DNA of 63,937 bases, the filler included, from Collodictyon triciliatum (Eukaryota), in the NCBI GenBank assembly GCA_043381765.1. It is 12 parts of 12 records of this genome, joined end to end, with 100 filler letters (N's around TTAATTAATTAA, not from the genome) between each part and the next. Parts side by side here need not be neighbours in the genome. Positions count along the whole stretch, not along the records: positions 28,234 to 33,766 come from JBHJMP010005133.1; 11 more parts are not named here. The stretch is one strand, 5' to 3'. Below the pieces are notes generated by a model, which was not told where the DNA came from, made no database searches, and saw only the letters and a program-made list of their open reading frames with translations. The position numbers and the translations under genes are program-made. Below are positions 5,540 through 36,466 of the stretch, piece by piece. How positions within the stretch are numbered: the stretch's first letter is position 1; the number at the start of each line of letters is the position of its first letter.

Positions 5540-5639
5540 NNNNNNNNNNNNNNNNNNNNNNNNNNNNNNNNNNNNNNNNNNNNTTAATTAATTAANNNNN
5601 NNNNNNNNNNNNNNNNNNNNNNNNNNNNNNNNNNNNNNN
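5540..5639. other. Artificial scaffold linker (N44-TTAATTAATTAA-N44)
   Basis: The same 100-nt spacer, with stops in all six frames, recurs at 11228-11327, 16865-16964, 22500-22599, 28134-28233, 33767-33866, 39373-39472, 45002-45101, 50642-50741, 56270-56369 and 61892-61991. Confidence 0.98.
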
Positions 5640-11227: not shown

Positions 11228-11854
11228 NNNNNNNNNNNNNNNNNNNNNNNNNNNNNNNNNNNNNNNNNNNNTTAATTAATTAANNNNNNNNNNNNNNNNN
11301 NNNNNNNNNNNNNNNNNNNNNNNNNNNCCGCTTGCTTCCTTCCTGCCCTCCTTTTTTTTTTTTTTTGTATAAATCAGGCCGGTTCTCTGACTCACTTTCT
11401 GCTTTGTAGTCAACGAGGCCGAGTTCTTTGGCATTATGGACCAATCGTCTGTATAAATAAAACCCGAAACAAGCTCAAACAAGATCAGCTAGCCCAGTCC
11501 GAAATGACATGTCGAGCCACTGGGCCCGTAGCTACACAAAGCAATGAACAAACGCCAAGCAAAGAATCAATAAAATAAAGGCAAAATCACACCCCAAATC
11601 CCACGATACACTATCACGCTCCACAGCCTTTAGTGGCAAGTTTGTTCCAACCTGGCATCGACTGCCAAAGTCTGCCTCACAATTAGTCGAGGCAGATGTT
11701 CCCTCCGCTCTTCCCTTCGATGGTCATGACCAAAGCAGAGATGAAACATAGTTGACTTGTCAGGCCTTCTTGTTTAATTCATTCGTCCGTCATTGAGGAT
11801 TTGTCAGACTCTGATACTCAAACTTTAGGACGAGCCAAACTTCTTGTGCGCTTG

Positions 11855-16826: not shown

Positions 16827-16964
16827 GAGCAGAAAGGAGCGAGATGTCGGTGCTTTACTTGCTGNNNNNNNNNNNNNNNNNNNNNNNNNNNNNNNNNNNN
16901 NNNNNNNNTTAATTAATTAANNNNNNNNNNNNNNNNNNNNNNNNNNNNNNNNNNNNNNNNNNNN

Positions 16965-27623: not shown

Positions 27624-27722
27624 CAAAGTGTTAACTTGCAAAATGGTTCTCCCATGCGCTCCCATCCCGCCCCTTTGCATGGCGTAACCTCGCTACACTT
27701 TGAATCGAATAAAGGAAAAAAA
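27624..27722 (+). mobile_element. LINE 3'-UTR fragment (family 1, longer copy) with poly(A)
   Basis: 27648-27683 matches 31637-31672 (tctcccatgcgctcccatcccgcccctttgYatggc). It ends ACACTTTGAATCGAATAAAGG(A)7, linking the ultra-short inserts to the LINE. Confidence 0.75.
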
Positions 27723-28056: not shown

Positions 28057-28345
<289 letters not shown>

Positions 28346-28416
28346 ATAAATGGATTGCCAATATGGTTGTCATTCCTGAAAACATGACATCTAAACAATT
28401 TAAGAAAAATCGCAGA

Positions 28417-30314
28417 CTACGCACTTATTGAAGTGATCCAGTCCATCACACTAGGCACCCTGAGGTAGACGCCTATGCTCATCGAATCAAAACACTGGTC
28501 TCCATAGTTAAATATTCCAACAATAACACTTCTCCCTTTTCCAGTAAATAATGGCCCTCCTTCATCTCCAGGACAACTTCCAACTCCTCCGTATTCGCTC
28601 TATGCGTCCAATATATACATATTAGTAATTATAACTTTATCTAAGCAGATGATGTGAGAGGTTTTCTCCGTTCTTCGATTATTGGTGTTTTAAAAAAATA
28701 TAAAACTAATATTTAGCCAGATTGCGATTCAATTGGTAGATTTTCTTGTTGAACTTCATCAACTAATTACTTTGAATCGAATAAAGGAAAAAAAAAACTT
28801 CATCAACTAATTGTAATAATTCATACAAAATAACCCGGAATACCAGCGCAAAGCTCATTCCCTGTCCAATTCGAACTTAGGTATTCGATGCATCCGTTCG
28901 TAAGATCCACAGGGATTTCAGTTTCGTGTAAGACGGGGTTTATGTAATAATCTAAACTAGATGTGTACCCCCAACCAGCCACCCTTAAGATTGAGCCTGT
29001 CTGCGACAAGTAGGAGCTTCTGAACGTGCCCAAAGAGGCCCCCTTGATATCAGTTGGGCTTTCATATTGGATAAGTAAACCATTTATTAACCAGAATTCA
29101 TTATTGTAAATGAAACTTAGAATGGAATTGAAGCTGTCATTGCATTAGCATAAGATCATGTATCTCTTGTATTTCATAACCTTATTACACTTTGAATCAA
29201 ATATAGCATATATAAAAAAAGTATTAAACCAGGTGTCTGAAAGTCAATCATACATTTTTGGCATAAAAACAAAGTAAATTAAATGCATTTCATTCCACCA
29301 GANNNNNNNNNNNNNNNNNNNNNNNNNNNNNNNNNNNNNNNNNNNNNNNNNNNNNNNNNNNNNNNNNNNNNNNNNNNNNNNNNNNNNNNNNNNNNNNNNN
29401 NNNNNNNNNNNNNNNNNNNNNNNNNNNNNNNNNNNNNNNNNNNNNNNNNNNNNNNNNNNNNNNNNNNNNNNNNNNNNNNNNNNNNNNNNNNNNNNNNNNN
29501 NNNNNNNNNNNNNNNNNNNNNNNNNNNNNNNNNNNNNNNNNNNNNNNNNNNNNNNNNNNNNNNNNNNNNNNNNNNNNNNNNNNNNNNNNNNNNNNNNNNN
29601 NNNNNNNNNNNNNNNNNNNNNNNNNNNNNNNNNNNNNNNNNNNNNNNNNNNNNNNNNNNNNNNNNNNNNNNNNNNNNNNNNNNNNNNNNNNNNNNNNNNT
29701 CTTCGATAGCGGTTATTCCAAATCATGGGCATCAATACTAACAGTATTTGAAAACAAAAAAAAATAATAAAACAAATTGATCAAAAGAACTTTGGATTAG
29801 ATTTATATATGGTAGAAATAAAGACCGTATGTTCCTCCCTTAGCCGCGCAGGTTGCTGATGTTATGACATAACGTGGGTGAATGAGAGATCCGATACATT
29901 GATGTAAAAAGTAGTCAAACATGTTTGTCGTTGAAAAAGTAATAGAGGCGAGCCATGGATACTGCCACGAGGCAGATGCATATCCTCCAGCGATCCGCTC
30001 TTCTGATTATTTTTAATTTATTTCATTCATCGTCAGAGTTTACTTCAATACTGCATCATATTAGGCCTGTTCATAGGATGTATATTTGTGTAGCAAGAAA
30101 AGACATTAATGCATGGTACTAAAAACTCCTTCGCAGGTACTCATAAACAGGAAGCGAGAGGACCGTAGTGGGCCAATTCCAAAACAGACTTGTGAAATAT
30201 ATGAAATCATTAAGCCATCTTCTTGCCTTTTTGTCGATCGCCACCATGGCAGAGAATAGTATGGCCCATGATTACAAGTATTACAATTGGCAATAAAATC
30301 GTGAGAAGCTTCAT
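28417..30314 (-). CDS. Secreted trypsin-fold (S1A) serine protease homolog, catalytically inactive
   Basis: Signal peptide MKLLTILLPIVILVIMG..., activation site ER/IAGG, then QYPWLASI, CIGSLIHPRYVITSATC (His to Thr), VAGWG, NELCAG, SCPGDEGGPL (Ser to Glu) and GVYLRVPSVMDWI. The first intron needs a GC donor (30226). Assembly gap at 29303-29699. Confidence 0.88.
28769..28797 (+). mobile_element. Ultra-short poly(A) retroposed insert, family 1, intronic
   Basis: ACTTTGAATCGAATAAAGG(A)10 with a perfect 17-bp TSD aacttcatcaactaatt (28752-28768, 28796-28812). Confidence 0.9.
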
Positions 30315-31220
30315 TGTATCACAGGGATAGTCTGTCTGGGGATGTATGTTCTGTAATTGCAGAAGTAGACCCTAATCTAGTTCGACTAGACACACAAGAG
30401 ATAAAGAATCACTAACAAACACATATTTGTGTATATTCCAGAGCTAATTACAAATTATTTATCGTCCCTTCTCCTTCGCTCGGCTCCATTAATACTATGC
30501 CCTTACATTTTTCTTTTCTTCCTCTTAATTCTTGTGCACTGAGCAAGACCTCATCACAATATATATATATATATATATATAAAGCTACACGAAGAGATAA
30601 TTGCCGATAGAATATCCGGATTAGAAAGCAACACCCCAACGAAGAACCCCCCTCAATCCTCGAGAAGATTCCCTCTGGGATACTTGCATGAACCAATAAG
30701 TTTCAAGCTTAATCAAGACAAATCAATAAAATAAAAAAAGGAAAAGTCAAAGCTACACTTAAAAATCCGCACATACTCCAGTCCTGTTGAGATCACTCTA
30801 TGACGAAGGGAGCAACTACCCCCTCTCTGCAATCTTAGGTTTCTTCTCTTTAGGCAACCACCTGTAGTCGATCGTGCCAGGCAATCCAATATCGAGGCTG
30901 CGCATGAATCAAATGATGTAAGATTAAAGCTATTGATTAGTCACTTTACAAGCGACAACTGCAAAGGCACATCGCTCTCTTATGCAGCGCAAAACTTTAG
31001 CGACGATAATCTACTTATATGTCCATACACAAAGCATTTTATAAATTAAATATGTTATAATATAATATAGGAAAAGATCAGTGGAATATATAGTTAATAC
31101 AAGCATATAATGATACATTAAAAGCAATTATAAAATATATTCCACAATTATTTTACCGTTATTAACAGTTTCCTTTTGCGGGTGACGTTAGTGCAGGATA
31201 ATAGAATTGGTGATGGTGTC

Positions 31221-31715
31221 CCTTCTCAGCGTGCCTGACATCCTGTTTGGCCCACAATACCAAATGACCCACGACTCTAGAATACTCTGGACAGTCACAA
31301 GAAGACATATGCTGTGGGCCTTATGGAGTGTGCGTGCATTCTCTTGCTCCAATGATTCACCCGAACGAGAAATCAACGTAGCCAGGCTTGAGAGCCTCGT
31401 GCAATACAGCTTCCTGGACAGCTTGCTGAAACATGCTCACATTCTTCGCTACTCTGACCGCAAGCGGAGAGAGATGTGGGAATGTGTCGTGCGATATCTC
31501 CCACAGCATATCCAACCCCTGCTACCCACGCAACCAATCAACCAGTTGGGTCGCGCGCCTGACCAACTTGCTATCACTGATTTCATTCCAGTGCTACCCT
31601 CTCCACGGTAGTGTCTTCTCCTACTCGCGTTTGCTCTCTCCCATGCGCTCCCATCCCGCCCCTTTGTATGGCATAGCCTTGTGACACTATTAATTAAATA
31701 AAAGGAAAAAAAAAA
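31221..31715 (+). mobile_element. 5'-truncated non-LTR retrotransposon (LINE): ORF2 C-terminus, 3' UTR and poly(A)
   Basis: Intronless ORF ending at TAG 31609-31611 with RHMLWALWSVRA (like the L1/Tx1 C-terminal WxxWxxR motif), a 3' UTR, AATAAAAGG(A)10, and a 13-bp TSD tggtgatggYgtc (31208-31220, 31716-31728). Confidence 0.8.
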
Positions 31716-31769
31716 TGGTGATGGCGTCAATCAGAGTGATGAATTTCCGCGGAATTTTAAAATTACTGG

Positions 31770-31882
31770 AAGGAGCACAACATCTTTCATTGGCAAACCT
31801 GGTTCGCTATATCCAAGGTCTCACCACTTTTTTCACAGGTTGTGTAGTGGTGAAGGCTGCCAGGAAAGACCCGACAGCCTGT
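31770..31882 (-). ncRNA. Candidate Fanzor omega-RNA scaffold
   Basis: Three abutting hairpins directly 3' of the Fanzor reading frame: 31855-31879, 31821-31853 and 31797-31819. Hairpin 1 pairs fully only on the minus strand (G-U pairs). Possible 6-bp pseudoknot CACAAC/GUUGUG. Boundaries are inferred. Confidence 0.55.
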
Positions 31883-33060
31883 TATTTTAGAGGTTTATGC
31901 ATTTTTTGAAGGATTAAAAGAACTTTCTCGAGTATATTTTTAGCGCTGTTAAAGTCCCTTGTCAAGAATACACTTTGTTTGCTTTCTCAGCGATTGCATT
32001 AATTACATATGAGACATCTTTTCTTTTTTTTTTTGTATTTCCTTTCGGTGTCATGTATCAGTTCTTTTTCGCGTTGCAGCACATTTTGGACGTTATAAAT
32101 TCATCTACATTAACTGTTTCGAAATGTTTGGATAGTATTTTTCGTAATCCTCTTCTGATTGTTGGCATAAAATGTTTCATCGTAGATTTTCTGCTCCAGT
32201 TTCCATACGCCAGTACAACATTCTTGCCAAATGTCTTTTCGATTCGGTCCATAAACAACGGTTCACTTCATTTTGTTCTAGCATAATGTCTCCGTCTCAC
32301 CTTTCGAAAAGTTACTTATTCATAAAATCTGGAAAATTCTATCCGGTATCTTGATTTTATAGATACATATTCTCAATTTTTTTCATAATCGACCGTGCAT
32401 GAATATTTTTACTCGGTTCTGTCTCTAAATCGATTAAAGATAATCTTACTGTCTCAAACAGCTGATTCTCTTCAAAAGTCATTTGACCAAAAGAAAAGGC
32501 ACTTTGTAAAACTGTTGCCATGCATATAGCTGAAGCCTTGTACTTTATATTTCTCGCGCAAGAGTATTTTTTTGATTTTTAAAGGATTTGCTCTCATGTC
32601 TTCTTTGGTGTGCCGTGTAACGTGATTTCTTACCTGTCTCATCCACTATGTAAACAAAATTAAACTTGCCTGGATCCACTCCAACTATTTTATTTTATTT
32701 TTTGTCGCTAATAATGATAACTGCTCTTCGGAAAGTCCATCTATGTGGACATATTCTTCGGTTTTTTTTTATTACATTTTGAATTTTGAATTTGAAATGC
32801 CTTTCTTTTTATACAATAATGTCACTACCAAGCTGTCTGTTTGTATCATGTATTTGAAATTGTAGTCTCTGTGATGAAAGACCCTCTTTATTTCAAAGAC
32901 ATTATTCCCACATGGTCTCTTTGCATCCTGATATATTCTTCAGTAATGATGTTTTCCAGATGATACTAATAGACCTATCGAACATGCAGTACCTAGAGTA
33001 ATATGACATGGTGTAGTGTTAGTTCTTATAGAGATTGGTCGAAACAGTCTGCGTCGAATG
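31882..33060 (-). pseudogene. Fanzor1 (eukaryotic TnpB-like RNA-guided endonuclease) pseudogene
   Basis: Ordered motifs: RLFRPISIRTNTTPCHI; YNFKYMIQTD; YVHIDGLSEEQL; RuvC-I IVGVDPGK (D at 32674-32676); RYTAHQRRHES; TVDYEK...FRKVRRRHY; TFGKNVVLAYGNWS...HFMPT..GLRKILSKHF..VNVDEFITSKMCC (E at 32100-32102); second CxxC; RuvC-III FLTRDFNSAKNI (D at 31954-31956). Many stops and frameshifts. Confidence 0.88.
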
Positions 33061-33669
33061 TCCTAAAAAATGCCATTGATGTAAAAAAGAAAAAAGAAAC
33101 GGGTGAATGAATCAAAGCAACCAATACTTAGCAAAATATTCATACTTATCTTGCTACCCGTGGGTCGATAGCAGAACTTGAATCATATGAACCCTTTCTC
33201 CAGTGTCTCTTGTTCTCTTCGATTCCTTGCGCGGAGCGCTTGGTCATGGAGCCTTTCATCTCTTTGCTGGGGTATCTCCCTTTGGTGTCTTTGTCAATCG
33301 TAAACCCGGATCTTTGTTAGTCTGCCTCCCTTTCTTCAGGCGTGTCTTTTTGCCTCTTGACTTTTGCAAGACCACTTTTTCTCTCCCTCGCTGTTTTTTT
33401 TTTTTTCATCTTGCTACTCGTTTTCCAGGTCAGGGCTCCTGGTGGTTGCAGCTTTTAGAGTTGTAATTATCCTCGACTCACTCGGGTGCGTAGTGATGAG
33501 CCATAAATCCAGCCTCCGTATCCAGCCGGCCTGCACCCTTACCCAACACGCTTCACTGCTTTCAACTAAGGTGCACACAACAACATCGGACTATAAAAAA
33601 TAATAATCTAAAAACCCTTCCTTCCCTTGAATCAAATAAAGGTGAACCCCCCAACCCCAACCCCAAGCC

Positions 33670-34009
33670 AAACAAAACAAAACAAAACAAAACAAAACAA
33701 AACAAAACAAAACAAAACAAAACAAAACAAAACAAAACAAAACAAAACAAAACAAAACAAAACAAANNNNNNNNNNNNNNNNNNNNNNNNNNNNNNNNNN
33801 NNNNNNNNNNTTAATTAATTAANNNNNNNNNNNNNNNNNNNNNNNNNNNNNNNNNNNNNNNNNNNNTCTCCTAATTTTGATTTCATTTTGTACCAGCTTA
33901 ACTTAGATATTGTATTGTATTGTATTGTATTGTATTGTATTGTATTGTATTGTATTGTATTGTATTGTATTGTATTGTATTGTATTGTATTGTATTGTAT
34001 TGTATTTTG
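33670..34009. repeat. (AAAAC)n and (TATTG)n microsatellites at scaffold ends
   Basis: Direct reading: 33670-33766 and 33908-34009. Confidence 0.93.
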
Positions 34010-34096
34010 AACCATAAAATTCTACATAGAATACCAACTATTCCAATAAGACCACCGAGATAGTAAATTTGTTTATCAACTTATTTTTGGATACAG

Positions 34097-36466
34097 GTTC
34101 ACTCTTTGGTGAAATATCATTTTTGGAGGGTGGAACTGTCAGTGCAAATGTGATTGCAGATGAAAACCCAACAGCAGTGTATATTATTGATGGGACATTC
34201 ATCGAAGGTATGACATCACTTGATATTTCCTTTCTAAATAATTTACAGATATTATGGAATCCTGAGAAAAATTGAATTGACAGATTAATTATTATGGCAT
34301 CATTTAAAAGGGCTATTGAAGGTCGAACCAGGCTTGCCAGGAAGATTCTATAACTATCTTGCTATCCAACTTGCTGACCGTCTTCGAAGCCGAAAGGTTG
34401 CTCTGCACTTTTTTATCTTAAAAAAAAAATCCTATTTTAACTTTTCATTTTTCTTCGAGTATTCTTTGTTATTTATTATAAGTTATTAAATATTAAATGA
34501 AAATGTGTCCAGATGCCATCCAACGCAGTTGTAGATGATAGCCGAAGCAAGTTAATCACAGACGAAAAATTCCAAAAGGCCTTCAATCTTCCAAAGGAGG
34601 AAAACCTGAGGCAACGTAATAATATAATCAATAAGCCATCCTTAAAAAAAAAATAAAATCTTCAGCTGATTTTCGGTTTTTGTTGATTTTCTTATTGAAT
34701 ATAAAATCATCTACCATCAGACTGGGCTTGCTGTATGGAAAAAAAGATGAAATATCACGGGGTTGTGTACATATCCACTAATTTCATTTGTTTCTCTGCC
34801 AAAGTTTTGGGAATGAAGACAAAGGTTTGTCGTCTAGTATAAATCAGGCACATAAATTCTCAGTTCTTTTTCTCTCAATGAAATTATCTCTACTCATGGA
34901 AATGAAAATGTATTCATAGGAGGTGATATCTTTGAAAGAGATATCGACAATCACTGCAAATGATTCAAAAATTGAAATAACAACAGCCGACGAGAAAGAG
35001 GTAGCTTTTTTTTTACTTCATCTCCTCAGTTTGCATTATGTTTTTTGTCCTTCTTTGTTTTGTTTTGTTTTGTTTTGTTTTGTTTTGTTTTGTTTTGTTT
35101 TGTTTTGTTTTGTTTTGTTTTGTTTTGTTTTGTTTTGTTTTGTTTTGTTTGGTATTTTGCATTTTGCATTTTATCTCTTTGTATTTTATTTTATTTTTTT
35201 GCATTTGTGGTTAGCTTACACCGCACATGAAATCACGATTTGTAGTTCACCTTTGGTCAATTCGATAACATCCAAGAGACGCATGAAATTATCTCTGGTG
35301 TGTGGAGACAGTGCAAGGTATTGCCCAAGATTAAGTATTAGTAAATGTACTTCCATTTTAGATTTTGTGTCTAAACCGCTCTTTATTAATTTTGAATCAC
35401 GTCTTGGCTACCGTTATTCTCTGTGTTATGCGCCAGGCAACCACCCGTGCAATACAGACAAGAAATCAGCTCACAAATCCCGAGAATTCAAGTCGTGAAG
35501 CGAAGGTTGGCTCATCAAAAGAAGTTTTGTCCGAAAAGGTATGTAAGGGAGTTAAAAAAAAATAATGAATAAAACCGTGACTAACTTTGAAATGGCACAT
35601 GATTATGAAAGTACAATCGCGTGTATCAGGGATTTGTAATACGCTGTGATAAAATAGGATTTGAAGATGCTTTTGACTGGAGCAAAGCTCGTGTTTTTCA
35701 AGAAAGATGAGATTGTTCTTGCCGAGGGAGGGTAAGACTGTAAATATGAAGACATATTCTGATTAAAAAAAAAAAACATTATGATGGCAACTAGATCTCT
35801 TTACTTGACTTGTGCAGTCTTCTATTAACGTGTTTCTACTCTTGTTAAAAAGGAAAAAAAAAACTATTGAAATGAATACTCCTACTCCATGGCCTGATGT
35901 GTTGTTTTCCTAAAGCAATTGATCGTTTCTATGCAGACGTATGCGATGTTTGTACCAAATCGGTCGAGGAACTGTGCGCGTTGAAAAGGGAAATGGAACG
36001 GACCGCGTTGTATTTCGCAAGATGCACCCTGGCCAGATGTTTGGAGAAATGTCCTTTTTGGAACCTGTGCCTGCTTCTGCCTCAATCGTAGCCGATGACG
36101 TTAGATTTGATTGAACTATTACATTTTCTGTTGTTTGATATCACGAAATAACCAGTTAATTTGTATCAATTAATCACGAAGCTGTTTTCTTTTAAAAAAA
36201 ATAAGAGAAAATTGGTATGTATATGTTATATAGCTACATTTTGATTGTGCATCATTTCCAATATCAATATTATTCACTGGTGATTTTTTTTTTTTATTTT
36301 CTGCCCCGAATTGTGGCAACCATATCTGTGCATAACGCAGACCGGCGCAGATGTGTATATTATCGAGCGCTCTTTTGTAGAGGGACTTCTCTATTTGGAC
36401 CCGGAGCTTCCGGGGCGCTTTTATAAGTTCCTTGCCCTTAATCTGGCTAATCGGTTAAGGAAGTAG
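34097..36466 (+). CDS. Cyclic-nucleotide-binding protein with cNMP-GRAM-cNMP architecture; 5' truncated
   Basis: cNMP motif FGEISFLEGGTVSANVIA, GRAM motif FQKAFNLPKEENL...YHGVVYISTNFICFSAKVLG, and second cNMP motif FFKKDEIVLAEG...LYQIGRGTVRV...GQMFGEMSFLEPVPASASIVA. Both cNMP units end PGRFYxxLAxxLAxRLR. Stop at 36464-36466. Confidence 0.88.

Follow-up and report, generated by a model that had tools for sequence, protein, structure and literature searches.

A decayed Fanzor1-type gene at the locus

The DNA analysed here, which we call the window, is a stretch of 63,937 nt from the genome of Collodictyon triciliatum (GCA_043381765.1). In the contig that occupies positions 28234-33766, the minus strand carries a decayed Fanzor1-type nuclease gene (31810..33089), hereafter the relic, which corresponds to residues 227-605 of P0001 followed by a C-terminal tail. 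P0001 (626 aa) is an intact relative, and a 69-aa piece of the relic matches it at E 8.7e-19. A tblastn search with P0001 split the match of its residues 227-605 into four pieces, which lie at 33089-31885 in alternating reading frames and contain 9 stops; counting the TAA at 31884, the relic has 10 in-frame stops, and it has at least 3 frameshifts. Its frame is not open over the full length, and P0001 residues 1-226 are without a match in it. The RuvC-type motifs VGVDPG, VDEFITSKMCC and RDFNSAKNI are still readable, as is VLAYGNWS, and these motifs together with significant similarity to Fanzor1 proteins mark the gene as being of Fanzor1/TnpB type. Pfam searches with six pieces of the relic gave nothing above cut-offs.

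The protein family of the relic is large and is found mainly on giant-virus contigs: 1433 of 2928 candidate proteins reach E <= 1e-5, and the cluster representatives that reach E <= 1e-3 number 3476. One of its members, P0085, matches SpuFz1 (8gkh, E 2.7e-27), GtFz1 and PpFz1 in the PDB (range E 2.7e-27 to 1.9e-24), and through P0085 the relic is, as judged by sequence similarity, related to the solved Fanzor1 proteins. Intact giant-virus relatives share 40-55% protein identity with the relic, and 49-58% over the 69-aa core piece; none of the 372 viral loci encoding a relative exceeded 58% over that piece. Protein searches returned nothing closer than P0001 among longer proteins, and nothing for the 70-aa read-through among proteins near that length. 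Scanning with relic peptides revealed no relative in the viral contig collection or in the genome contig collection, and the 588 pattern matches obtained in metagenome contigs included none that could be confirmed. A degenerate DNA pattern over the RDFNSAKNI codons picked out 10 metagenome loci, none of them related by blastn or tblastn, and a 21-nt exact pattern across hairpins 1 and 2, described below, had 0 matches in the genome contig collection. In the window, blastn and tblastn detected no copy beyond the single relic, and none of the 64 kb holds an intact Fanzor gene.

Many related contigs from public sequencing runs have 1-2 bases extra or missing relative to the window at 31888-31890, 32058, 32887-32889 and other positions; at 32058, where the relic shifts frame, they have 2 additional bases. 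Because related contigs carry these indels, some of the frameshifts appear from the sequence comparison to be private to the window copy, and the consensus of the family may come nearer to an open frame than this copy does.

The present stop codon lies within the ancestral coding tail

The present frame ends at a TAA (31882..31884, minus strand). We built a profile HMM from 96 distinct tails of the family, each taken from the RuvC-III motif onward to the C-terminus, and its positions 1-48 aligned whole to RDFNS...KPLK-X-QAVGSFLAAFTTTQPVKKVVRPW (38.9 bits, E 1.7e-11 in a six-frame search of the window). Similarly, the final residues of many 624-aa relatives align through the TAA to 31816 in the same frame. 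Extending the relic by its same-frame tail raised the score from 32.5 to 45.6 bits (+13.1), with 32.0 and 31.3 bits for the other two frames, and the real score was reached by 0 of 200 shuffled tails (mean 32.2, maximum 37.8). The distal half of the tail (31845-31810) is significant on its own (0/300 shuffles); for the proximal half the count was 1/300. On the strength of this homology, the TAA at 31884-31882 is a premature stop, not the gene end.

The tail homology is collinear through the TAA, which indicates that the ancestral Fanzor1 frame probably ended at the TAG at 31807..31809 (minus strand), where the relic tail reads ...KKVVRPWI* and family tails read ...EKVRPS*. With the ancestral stop at this TAG, hairpins 1 and 2 and the 5' arm of hairpin 3 would stand in old coding sequence. 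The earlier note had placed the hairpins immediately 3' of the Fanzor frame; this is true of the present, broken frame ending at the TAA, but not of the ancestral frame, as the profile aligns through that codon. One further candidate, a repeat unit ending at the A-run 31833-31828 as a retroposed mRNA copy would, was dropped, the distal tail (31845-31810) being homologous to the family C-terminus.

Three abutting hairpins fold on the gene strand

Three hairpins abut one another on the minus strand. Hairpin 1 (31854..31880), within the ancestral coding tail, is formed by GGCUGUCGGG/CCUGGCAGCC around a UCUUU loop; 10 bp at 31879-31855, two of them G-U, are extended by an extra A-U pair to 11 bp at 31880-31854. 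Hairpin 2 (31821..31853) consists of 8 bp, UCACCACU/AGUGGUGA, reaching from the F-T codons to the V-R-P codons, and RNAfold predicts an inner 4-bp tier, CACA/UGUG, in its loop. Hairpin 3 (31797..31819), ACCuUGG/CCAGGU, has 6 bp plus a bulge and the ancestral stop codon in its loop. Together, the three span 31880-31797 and cover the last 25 codons and the ancestral stop, and they lie, as is expected of an omega-RNA, on the strand of the nuclease gene and at or across its 3' end. The post-stop stretch (31729..31806, minus strand), the expected site of the remaining scaffold, holds the palindrome TTCCGCGGAA at 31745-31754 and GUUGUG at 31781-31776. The sequence features that the earlier note had described, the palindrome included, were all found.

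The 140-nt stretch folds on the minus strand at -42.5 kcal/mol, as against -32.4 +/- 3.4 for shuffled sequences (z -3.0, with 1 of 200 shuffles as stable), whereas the plus strand gives z -0.6, with 55 of 200 shuffles as stable. The claim that the fold is best on the Fanzor strand, by virtue of its two G-U pairs, thus stands. For the 86-nt core (31797-31882) the value is z -4.0, again with 1 of 200 shuffles as stable. Folding no better than shuffled controls had been named beforehand as an outcome that would refute a guide-RNA scaffold; by the z values just given, the stretch folds better than chance. The structure is real and non-random. A search against Rfam gave no match above the gathering score, and two matches far below threshold (14.5 and 11.2 bits).

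A real structure may still be accidental. The hairpins could be chance products of a decaying low-complexity coding tail, arising for example from a GTG duplication opposite CACCAC or from a small inverted duplication, without ever having had an RNA role, and their likeness to the viral stems described below would then be a positional coincidence. We consider this unlikely. In its favour, z <= -3 is reached by 2 of 168 tile-strands of 140 nt (~1%), in a background sample that covered the first 12 kb of the window with 25 shuffles per tile. Against it, strong hairpins are sparse: counting nested registers separately, 62.6 kb holds 24 listings per strand of perfect hairpins of at least 8 bp and 35 minus-strand listings of at least 10 bp with at most two G-U pairs, a density of ~0.3-0.5 per kb per strand. 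At this density two strong hairpins abutting at a chosen place are unlikely to arise by chance; from the hairpin densities in the window we estimate roughly 1 in 1000 for one chosen 100 nt. The G-U pairs, which make the fold specific to the gene strand, also speak against an accidental origin.

A pseudoknot had been suggested as well. CACAAC in the loop of hairpin 2 (31844-31839) is indeed complementary to GUUGUG (31781-31776), but a 6-nt complementarity would by our estimate occur by chance in roughly a quarter of such cases, the CACA of this motif pairs locally in the predicted fold, and the word 'pseudoknot' does not occur in the main text of the Fz1 structure paper (PMC11423790). A pseudoknot has been described for the TnpB of ISDra2 and IS607 and suggested for Fanzor2 (bioRxiv 10.1101/2023.08.09.552727); unlike those systems, the relic offers a single 6-nt complementarity, a candidate pairing.

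Giant-virus relatives have covarying stems at the same place

We examined the 3' ends of intact Fanzor1 genes from giant viruses (GVMAG / IMG-VR). In the family of P0085 (77 loci), conservation persists for ~95 nt past the stop codon, and column identity then drops from ~0.9 to 0.45 directly after ...AAGGTGTAAA; such a collapse is the signature of a transposon right end. RNAalifold applied to 37 sequences of this family gave a structure with a coding-tail hairpin and a terminal long stem enclosing an inner hairpin, in which 6 of the 26 pairs are changed on both sides. The coding-tail stem-loop was then represented by 69 distinct versions pooled from all viral loci. Over its 13 pairs, 96.9% of 897 cells are paired, compared with 42-61% in slid controls, and 78 cells are changed on both sides, compared with 19.3 after shuffling (0 of 500 shuffles reached 78). 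Its core is 7 bp long and stands between the F-T and V-R-P codons. This length agrees with that reported in the main text on three Fz1 structures, where 'SL1 consistently contains seven base pairs' (PMC11423790).

In the P0127 family, represented by two distinct sequences (z -5.0 and -4.8), a 10-bp hairpin at the RP motif abuts a tiered hairpin that starts with ACC UUC ACC, and small hairpins followed by a terminal stem lie beyond it. Comparing the two loci L088 and L089, we observed one compensatory change in each of the first two hairpins. The viral families also have a variable hairpin over or just past the stop codon, for example GUAGG..CCUAC. An extra hairpin resembling hairpin 1 is restricted to some of them.

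By analogy with SpuFz1, GtFz1, PpFz1 and SfAV Fanzor1, we infer that the viral stems are the guide-RNA scaffold. For SpuFz1, a 75-nt scaffold with a 14-15-nt guide is reported (PMC10432273), and for the Fanzor1 of the ascovirus SfAV a reRNA of ~120 nt in three stems with ~20 nt of guide (bioRxiv 10.1101/2023.08.09.552727). The omega-RNAs of SpuFz1, GtFz1 and PpFz1 are described as a first stem-loop of ~7 bp and then variable stem-loops, with a scaffold of at least 75 nt and a guide that comes from the flank past the right end (PMC10432273, PMC11423790). The SfAV Fanzor1, a viral protein of ~600 aa, is comparable to the system described here, and the last stem of its reRNA includes the element end; that reRNA was demonstrated by small-RNA sequencing of infected larvae (bioRxiv 10.1101/2023.08.09.552727), whereas that of the relic is predicted from DNA.

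Some features of the viral loci are recorded here in their own right. The loci L001-L077, L088-L092 and L173-L252 belong to a very large giant-virus Fanzor1 family with a covarying guide-RNA-like scaffold, which ends sharply at ...GGUGUAAA. The P0127 ORF extends ~90 nt further over the same RNA core. At ~3940-3975 of L040 the scaffold is shortened and the reverse complement of the element end (TTTACACCTTT...) follows, which suggests that a second element inserted head to head and that the 3' arm of the terminal stem is the right inverted repeat.

The relic shares the architecture, not the pairs, of the viral stems

The C-terminal tail of the relic is collinear with those of the giant-virus Fanzor1 proteins (P0085, P0127), and its hairpins stand on the same codons. 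Its 11-bp hairpin abuts an 8+4-bp hairpin that starts with GCC UUC ACC and ends in the V-R-P codons, and the two match the P0127 hairpins in order, size and position in the tail; hairpin 1 corresponds by position to the 10-bp P0127 hairpin at the RP motif. The relic also shares TTCACCACU / UUCACCACU with the L214 type of viral stem-loop. This same architecture in the same codons as in the viral relatives leads us to read hairpins 1 and 2 as inherited guide-RNA structure, with hairpin 2 probably corresponding to stem-loop 1 of Fanzor1 guide RNAs. We infer that the relic hairpins descend from viral-type stems on the grounds of place and architecture. For hairpin 3, set beside the variable stop-codon hairpins of the viral families, there was no pair-level evidence. 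Intact genes, the conserved linker UUGAUUUUAC, a terminal long stem around an inner hairpin and an abrupt right end set the giant-virus families apart from the relic, in which none of these features is recognisable.

The hairpins of the relic were missed by every sequence or structure model that we applied, as might be expected if they were accidental. A covariance model of the whole P0085 scaffold (R1) gave no match at the relic at E <= 10 in the window, and with filters off its best score in 31600-32000 was 3.8 bits; as a control, it found the P0127 family at 23.6-27 bits. A covariance model of the coding-tail stem-loop (R2) scored hairpin 2 at -0.4 bits; as a control, L088 was found at 14.3 bits only within 251 nt, and in a large search both L088 and L089 were missed. 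These controls show that the models, whose effective sequence numbers were only 1.3 and 5.6, have limited, not zero, reach. With nhmmer, hairpin 2 appeared only at E 32.

Pair by pair, too, the stems differ, which is again what an accidental origin would predict. A MAFFT alignment sets the 3' arm of hairpin 2 against AAAAAGUAAGAC, the motif that follows the stem in the viruses, and the pairs of the relic are therefore not the same pairs as those of the viral stem. Where a first stem-loop of ~7 bp is expected, the viral relatives have a covarying 7-bp stem and the relic an 8+4-bp stem between the same codons. An accidental origin would, on the other hand, have to place the hairpins exactly where two viral lineages have covarying ones.

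Viewed as inherited structure, the relic hairpins share with the omega-RNAs of SpuFz1, GtFz1 and PpFz1 (Saito et al. 2023, PMC10432273; Cell 2024, PMC11423790) their strand and their location where a Fanzor1 gene ends. In contrast to the three systems described there, the first hairpins of the relic and of its viral relatives lie inside the coding tail, and the relic is without a recognisable guide-proximal stem, an inverted repeat or a working gene.

A retroposon occupies the expected right end of the element

Downstream of the post-stop stretch lies a high-copy, retroposon-like insert (31221..31715, plus strand), which ends in AATAAA..A10. A 13-bp direct repeat flanks it, the two copies differing at one position; this target-site duplication reads TGGTGATGGCGTC on the right (31716..31728, plus strand) and TGGTGATGGTGTC on the left (31208-31220, plus strand). 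In X2, one of the public sequencing runs considered below, depth is 327-2700 over 31200-31696 and 1.3 over 31697-31767. The insert lies 91 nt past the ancestral stop; the right end of the viral template is ~95 nt past the stop, which corresponds to a position near 31712. The retroposon thereby separates the relic from its former downstream flank. The proposal that the scaffold ends at 31743 with the guide just beyond it was not borne out, the viral template putting the right end near 31712, where the retroposon now is.

We searched for other signs of an element end. Neither the fold of 31700-31890 nor that obtained after removal of the insert showed a guide-proximal terminal stem, the R1 score staying at or below 3.8 bits, and none of 31 pairs of candidate terminal inverted repeats was convincing. 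A sharp, conserved right end is clear in the viral families; in the relic the expected end at ~31712 is occupied by the retroposon, and X2 depth falls at 31840-31852, a drop bridged by contigs of two other runs, X3 and X4. A long-range pairing of AAAAAAGUGGUGA with UCACCAUUUUUU was dropped, as its U-run belongs to the poly(A) of the inserted retroposon. As to the insert itself, there were 0 tRNA genes in the contig that would indicate a tRNA-derived origin, and it had no Pfam match. Below 31225, contigs from two of the runs no longer follow the window sequence, as they would after 5' truncation of the insert, and a 76-nt piece of the insert recurs at 27648-27722 in the neighbouring contig.

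Intact stems beside a broken gene

Hairpins 1 and 2 have 23 predicted pairs between them, and every one is intact (2 as G-U), in a relic whose reading frame is thoroughly broken. The earlier note had taken the good state of the stems as a hint that an active nuclease still uses the RNA in trans. In simulations, 23 pairs remained without a broken pair in 19%, 3.6% and 0.6% of cases at 5%, 10% and 15% divergence, respectively. Splitting the divergence between lineages would put the window copy perhaps 5-10% away from the common ancestor, and with 4-19% of simulations intact at that divergence, intact stems are poor evidence for selection. The hint is thus unsupported.

The corresponding reading of the locus has a precedent in the 'ghost' omega-RNA loci proposed for Spizellomyces punctatus, which keep the scaffold without a working nuclease gene (PMC10432273). 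Here the gene would be dead and its RNA still transcribed and loaded by an intact Fanzor1 encoded elsewhere, which we regard as highly unlikely. Besides the precedent and the contrast of 23 intact pairs with 10 stops and at least 3 frameshifts, the number of related copies speaks for it, X2 alone holding 368 related contigs. In its full form, with the coding-tail hairpins kept by selection after the death of the nuclease, many decayed copies feeding an intact Fanzor1 and a giant-virus-type family multiplied to many copies, we likewise give it very little credence. The guide-adjacent part of the scaffold is unrecognisable, and the retroposon lies between the scaffold and the old flank. No intact Fanzor is present in the 64 kb, and none above 58% identity was found in any collection searched. 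The ghost loci, moreover, are conserved, bounded by inverted repeats and hold the whole 75-nt scaffold (PMC10432273), whereas in the relic only 5' hairpins can be seen, beside a decayed gene. The 3' half of the scaffold being unrecognisable, the expected right end occupied by a retroposon and the gene broken, the locus is most likely inert.

Related copies in public sequencing runs

Four public runs were compared as contigs only, and for X2 the kind of run is a guess, so that its depth is not readable as expression. None of the public runs holds more than 0.18 of the sampled words of the stretch, and the holders include no RNA run, which makes them uninformative on expression. The 368 related contigs of X2 are 80 to >99% alike, and the divergence of other copies from the window copy is about 1-18%. 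X2 depth over the gene (31839-33045) is 93-537; it is 284 over 31839-31909, 17.7 over 31768-31838 and 1.3 over 31697-31767. Most related X2 contigs stop near 31840-31852, ~35-45 nt past the present stop, and the drop in depth is spanned by contigs of X3 (31810-31955) and X4 (31735-31887).

The fall from 284 to 17.7 to 1.3 implies that most X2 copies are without a window-like 3' arm of hairpin 2 or hairpin 3. On sequence likeness at the 80% level, hairpin 1 is common to many copies, and the 3' arm of hairpin 2 and hairpin 3 are common to few. This is a further point in favour of an accidental origin of the hairpins. The drop itself may reflect a truncated or diverged subfamily, transcript ends or the assembly.

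The same contig ends raise the question of a role at another level, in which the hairpins would signal the mRNA 3' end of the truncated gene or govern the stability of its message, or would form a DNA structure at the transposon end recognised by a transposase. If X2 were RNA, the ends near 31840-31852 would fit such a signal; and in about half of the X2 depth and in the sole X3 contig there, 2 extra bases at 31888-31890 create a stop immediately ahead of hairpin 1. Against such a role, what kind of run X2 is can only be guessed, the hairpin region has no partner among terminal inverted repeats, and the tail homology marks the stretch as coding in the ancestor. We consider a role of this sort very improbable.

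A fossil guide-RNA 5' part of a dead Fanzor1 element as the preferred reading

Taking these observations together, we think it fairly probable that the stretch preserves, as a fossil, the 5' part of the guide RNA (omega-RNA/reRNA) of a dead Fanzor1 element. The idea of a candidate omega-RNA at the Fanzor 3' end is upheld to the extent that the hairpins share the strand of a Fanzor1-type gene and occupy its 3' end, where the nearest intact relatives have covarying stems; the stretch is most likely not a working RNA.

In working elements, according to our model, the last 60-140 nt of the gene and the following 50-95 nt to the transposon right end would be transcribed from the gene strand. The scaffold would begin with the 7-bp stem-loop in the coding tail, preceded in some lineages by an extra hairpin, continue with a variable hairpin near the stop codon and close with the terminal long stem containing the element end; the 15-20 nt of flanking DNA that come next would guide the nuclease. 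In the relic, hairpins 1 and 2 would be this lineage's version of the coding-tail hairpins, with hairpin 3 over the ancestral stop. The 3' half of the relic scaffold would have been lost or become unrecognisable; a retroposon occupies the expected right end, and the nuclease gene is broken.

The locus offers no new mechanism or tool and is most likely an ordinary fossil of a known system. It does teach that, in dead Fanzor genes, the stop codon of the relic is not the gene end. The coding tail of this Fanzor1 lineage contains the first hairpins of the guide RNA, and what looks like a 3' UTR structure may therefore be old coding sequence with an RNA overlaid on it. A giant-virus-type Fanzor1 family that has multiplied in a eukaryotic genome from freshwater samples may also be of interest to studies of giant virus-host exchange.

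Other features of the window

The window is made up of parts of ~5.5 kb in roughly descending size, joined every ~5.6 kb by linkers of the form N44 + TTAATTAATTAA + N44 (5540-5639, 11228-11327, 16865-16964 and onward); stretches on either side of a linker are not genome neighbours. A further run of 397 N is found at 29303-29699. The contig of the relic (28234-33766) also holds exons of a trypsin-like protease at 28821-30006 on the minus strand (Pfam Trypsin, E 3.9e-6 and 1.5e-4), and the next contig has pieces of cyclic-nucleotide-binding domains at 34030-34275 and 35923-36114, both on the plus strand; genes of these kinds are ordinary in eukaryotes. At contig ends (33680-33766, 33900-34010 and 35050-35200) there are long microsatellites with pentanucleotide units, (TTTTG)n and (ATACA)n, which probably account for the assembly breaks.
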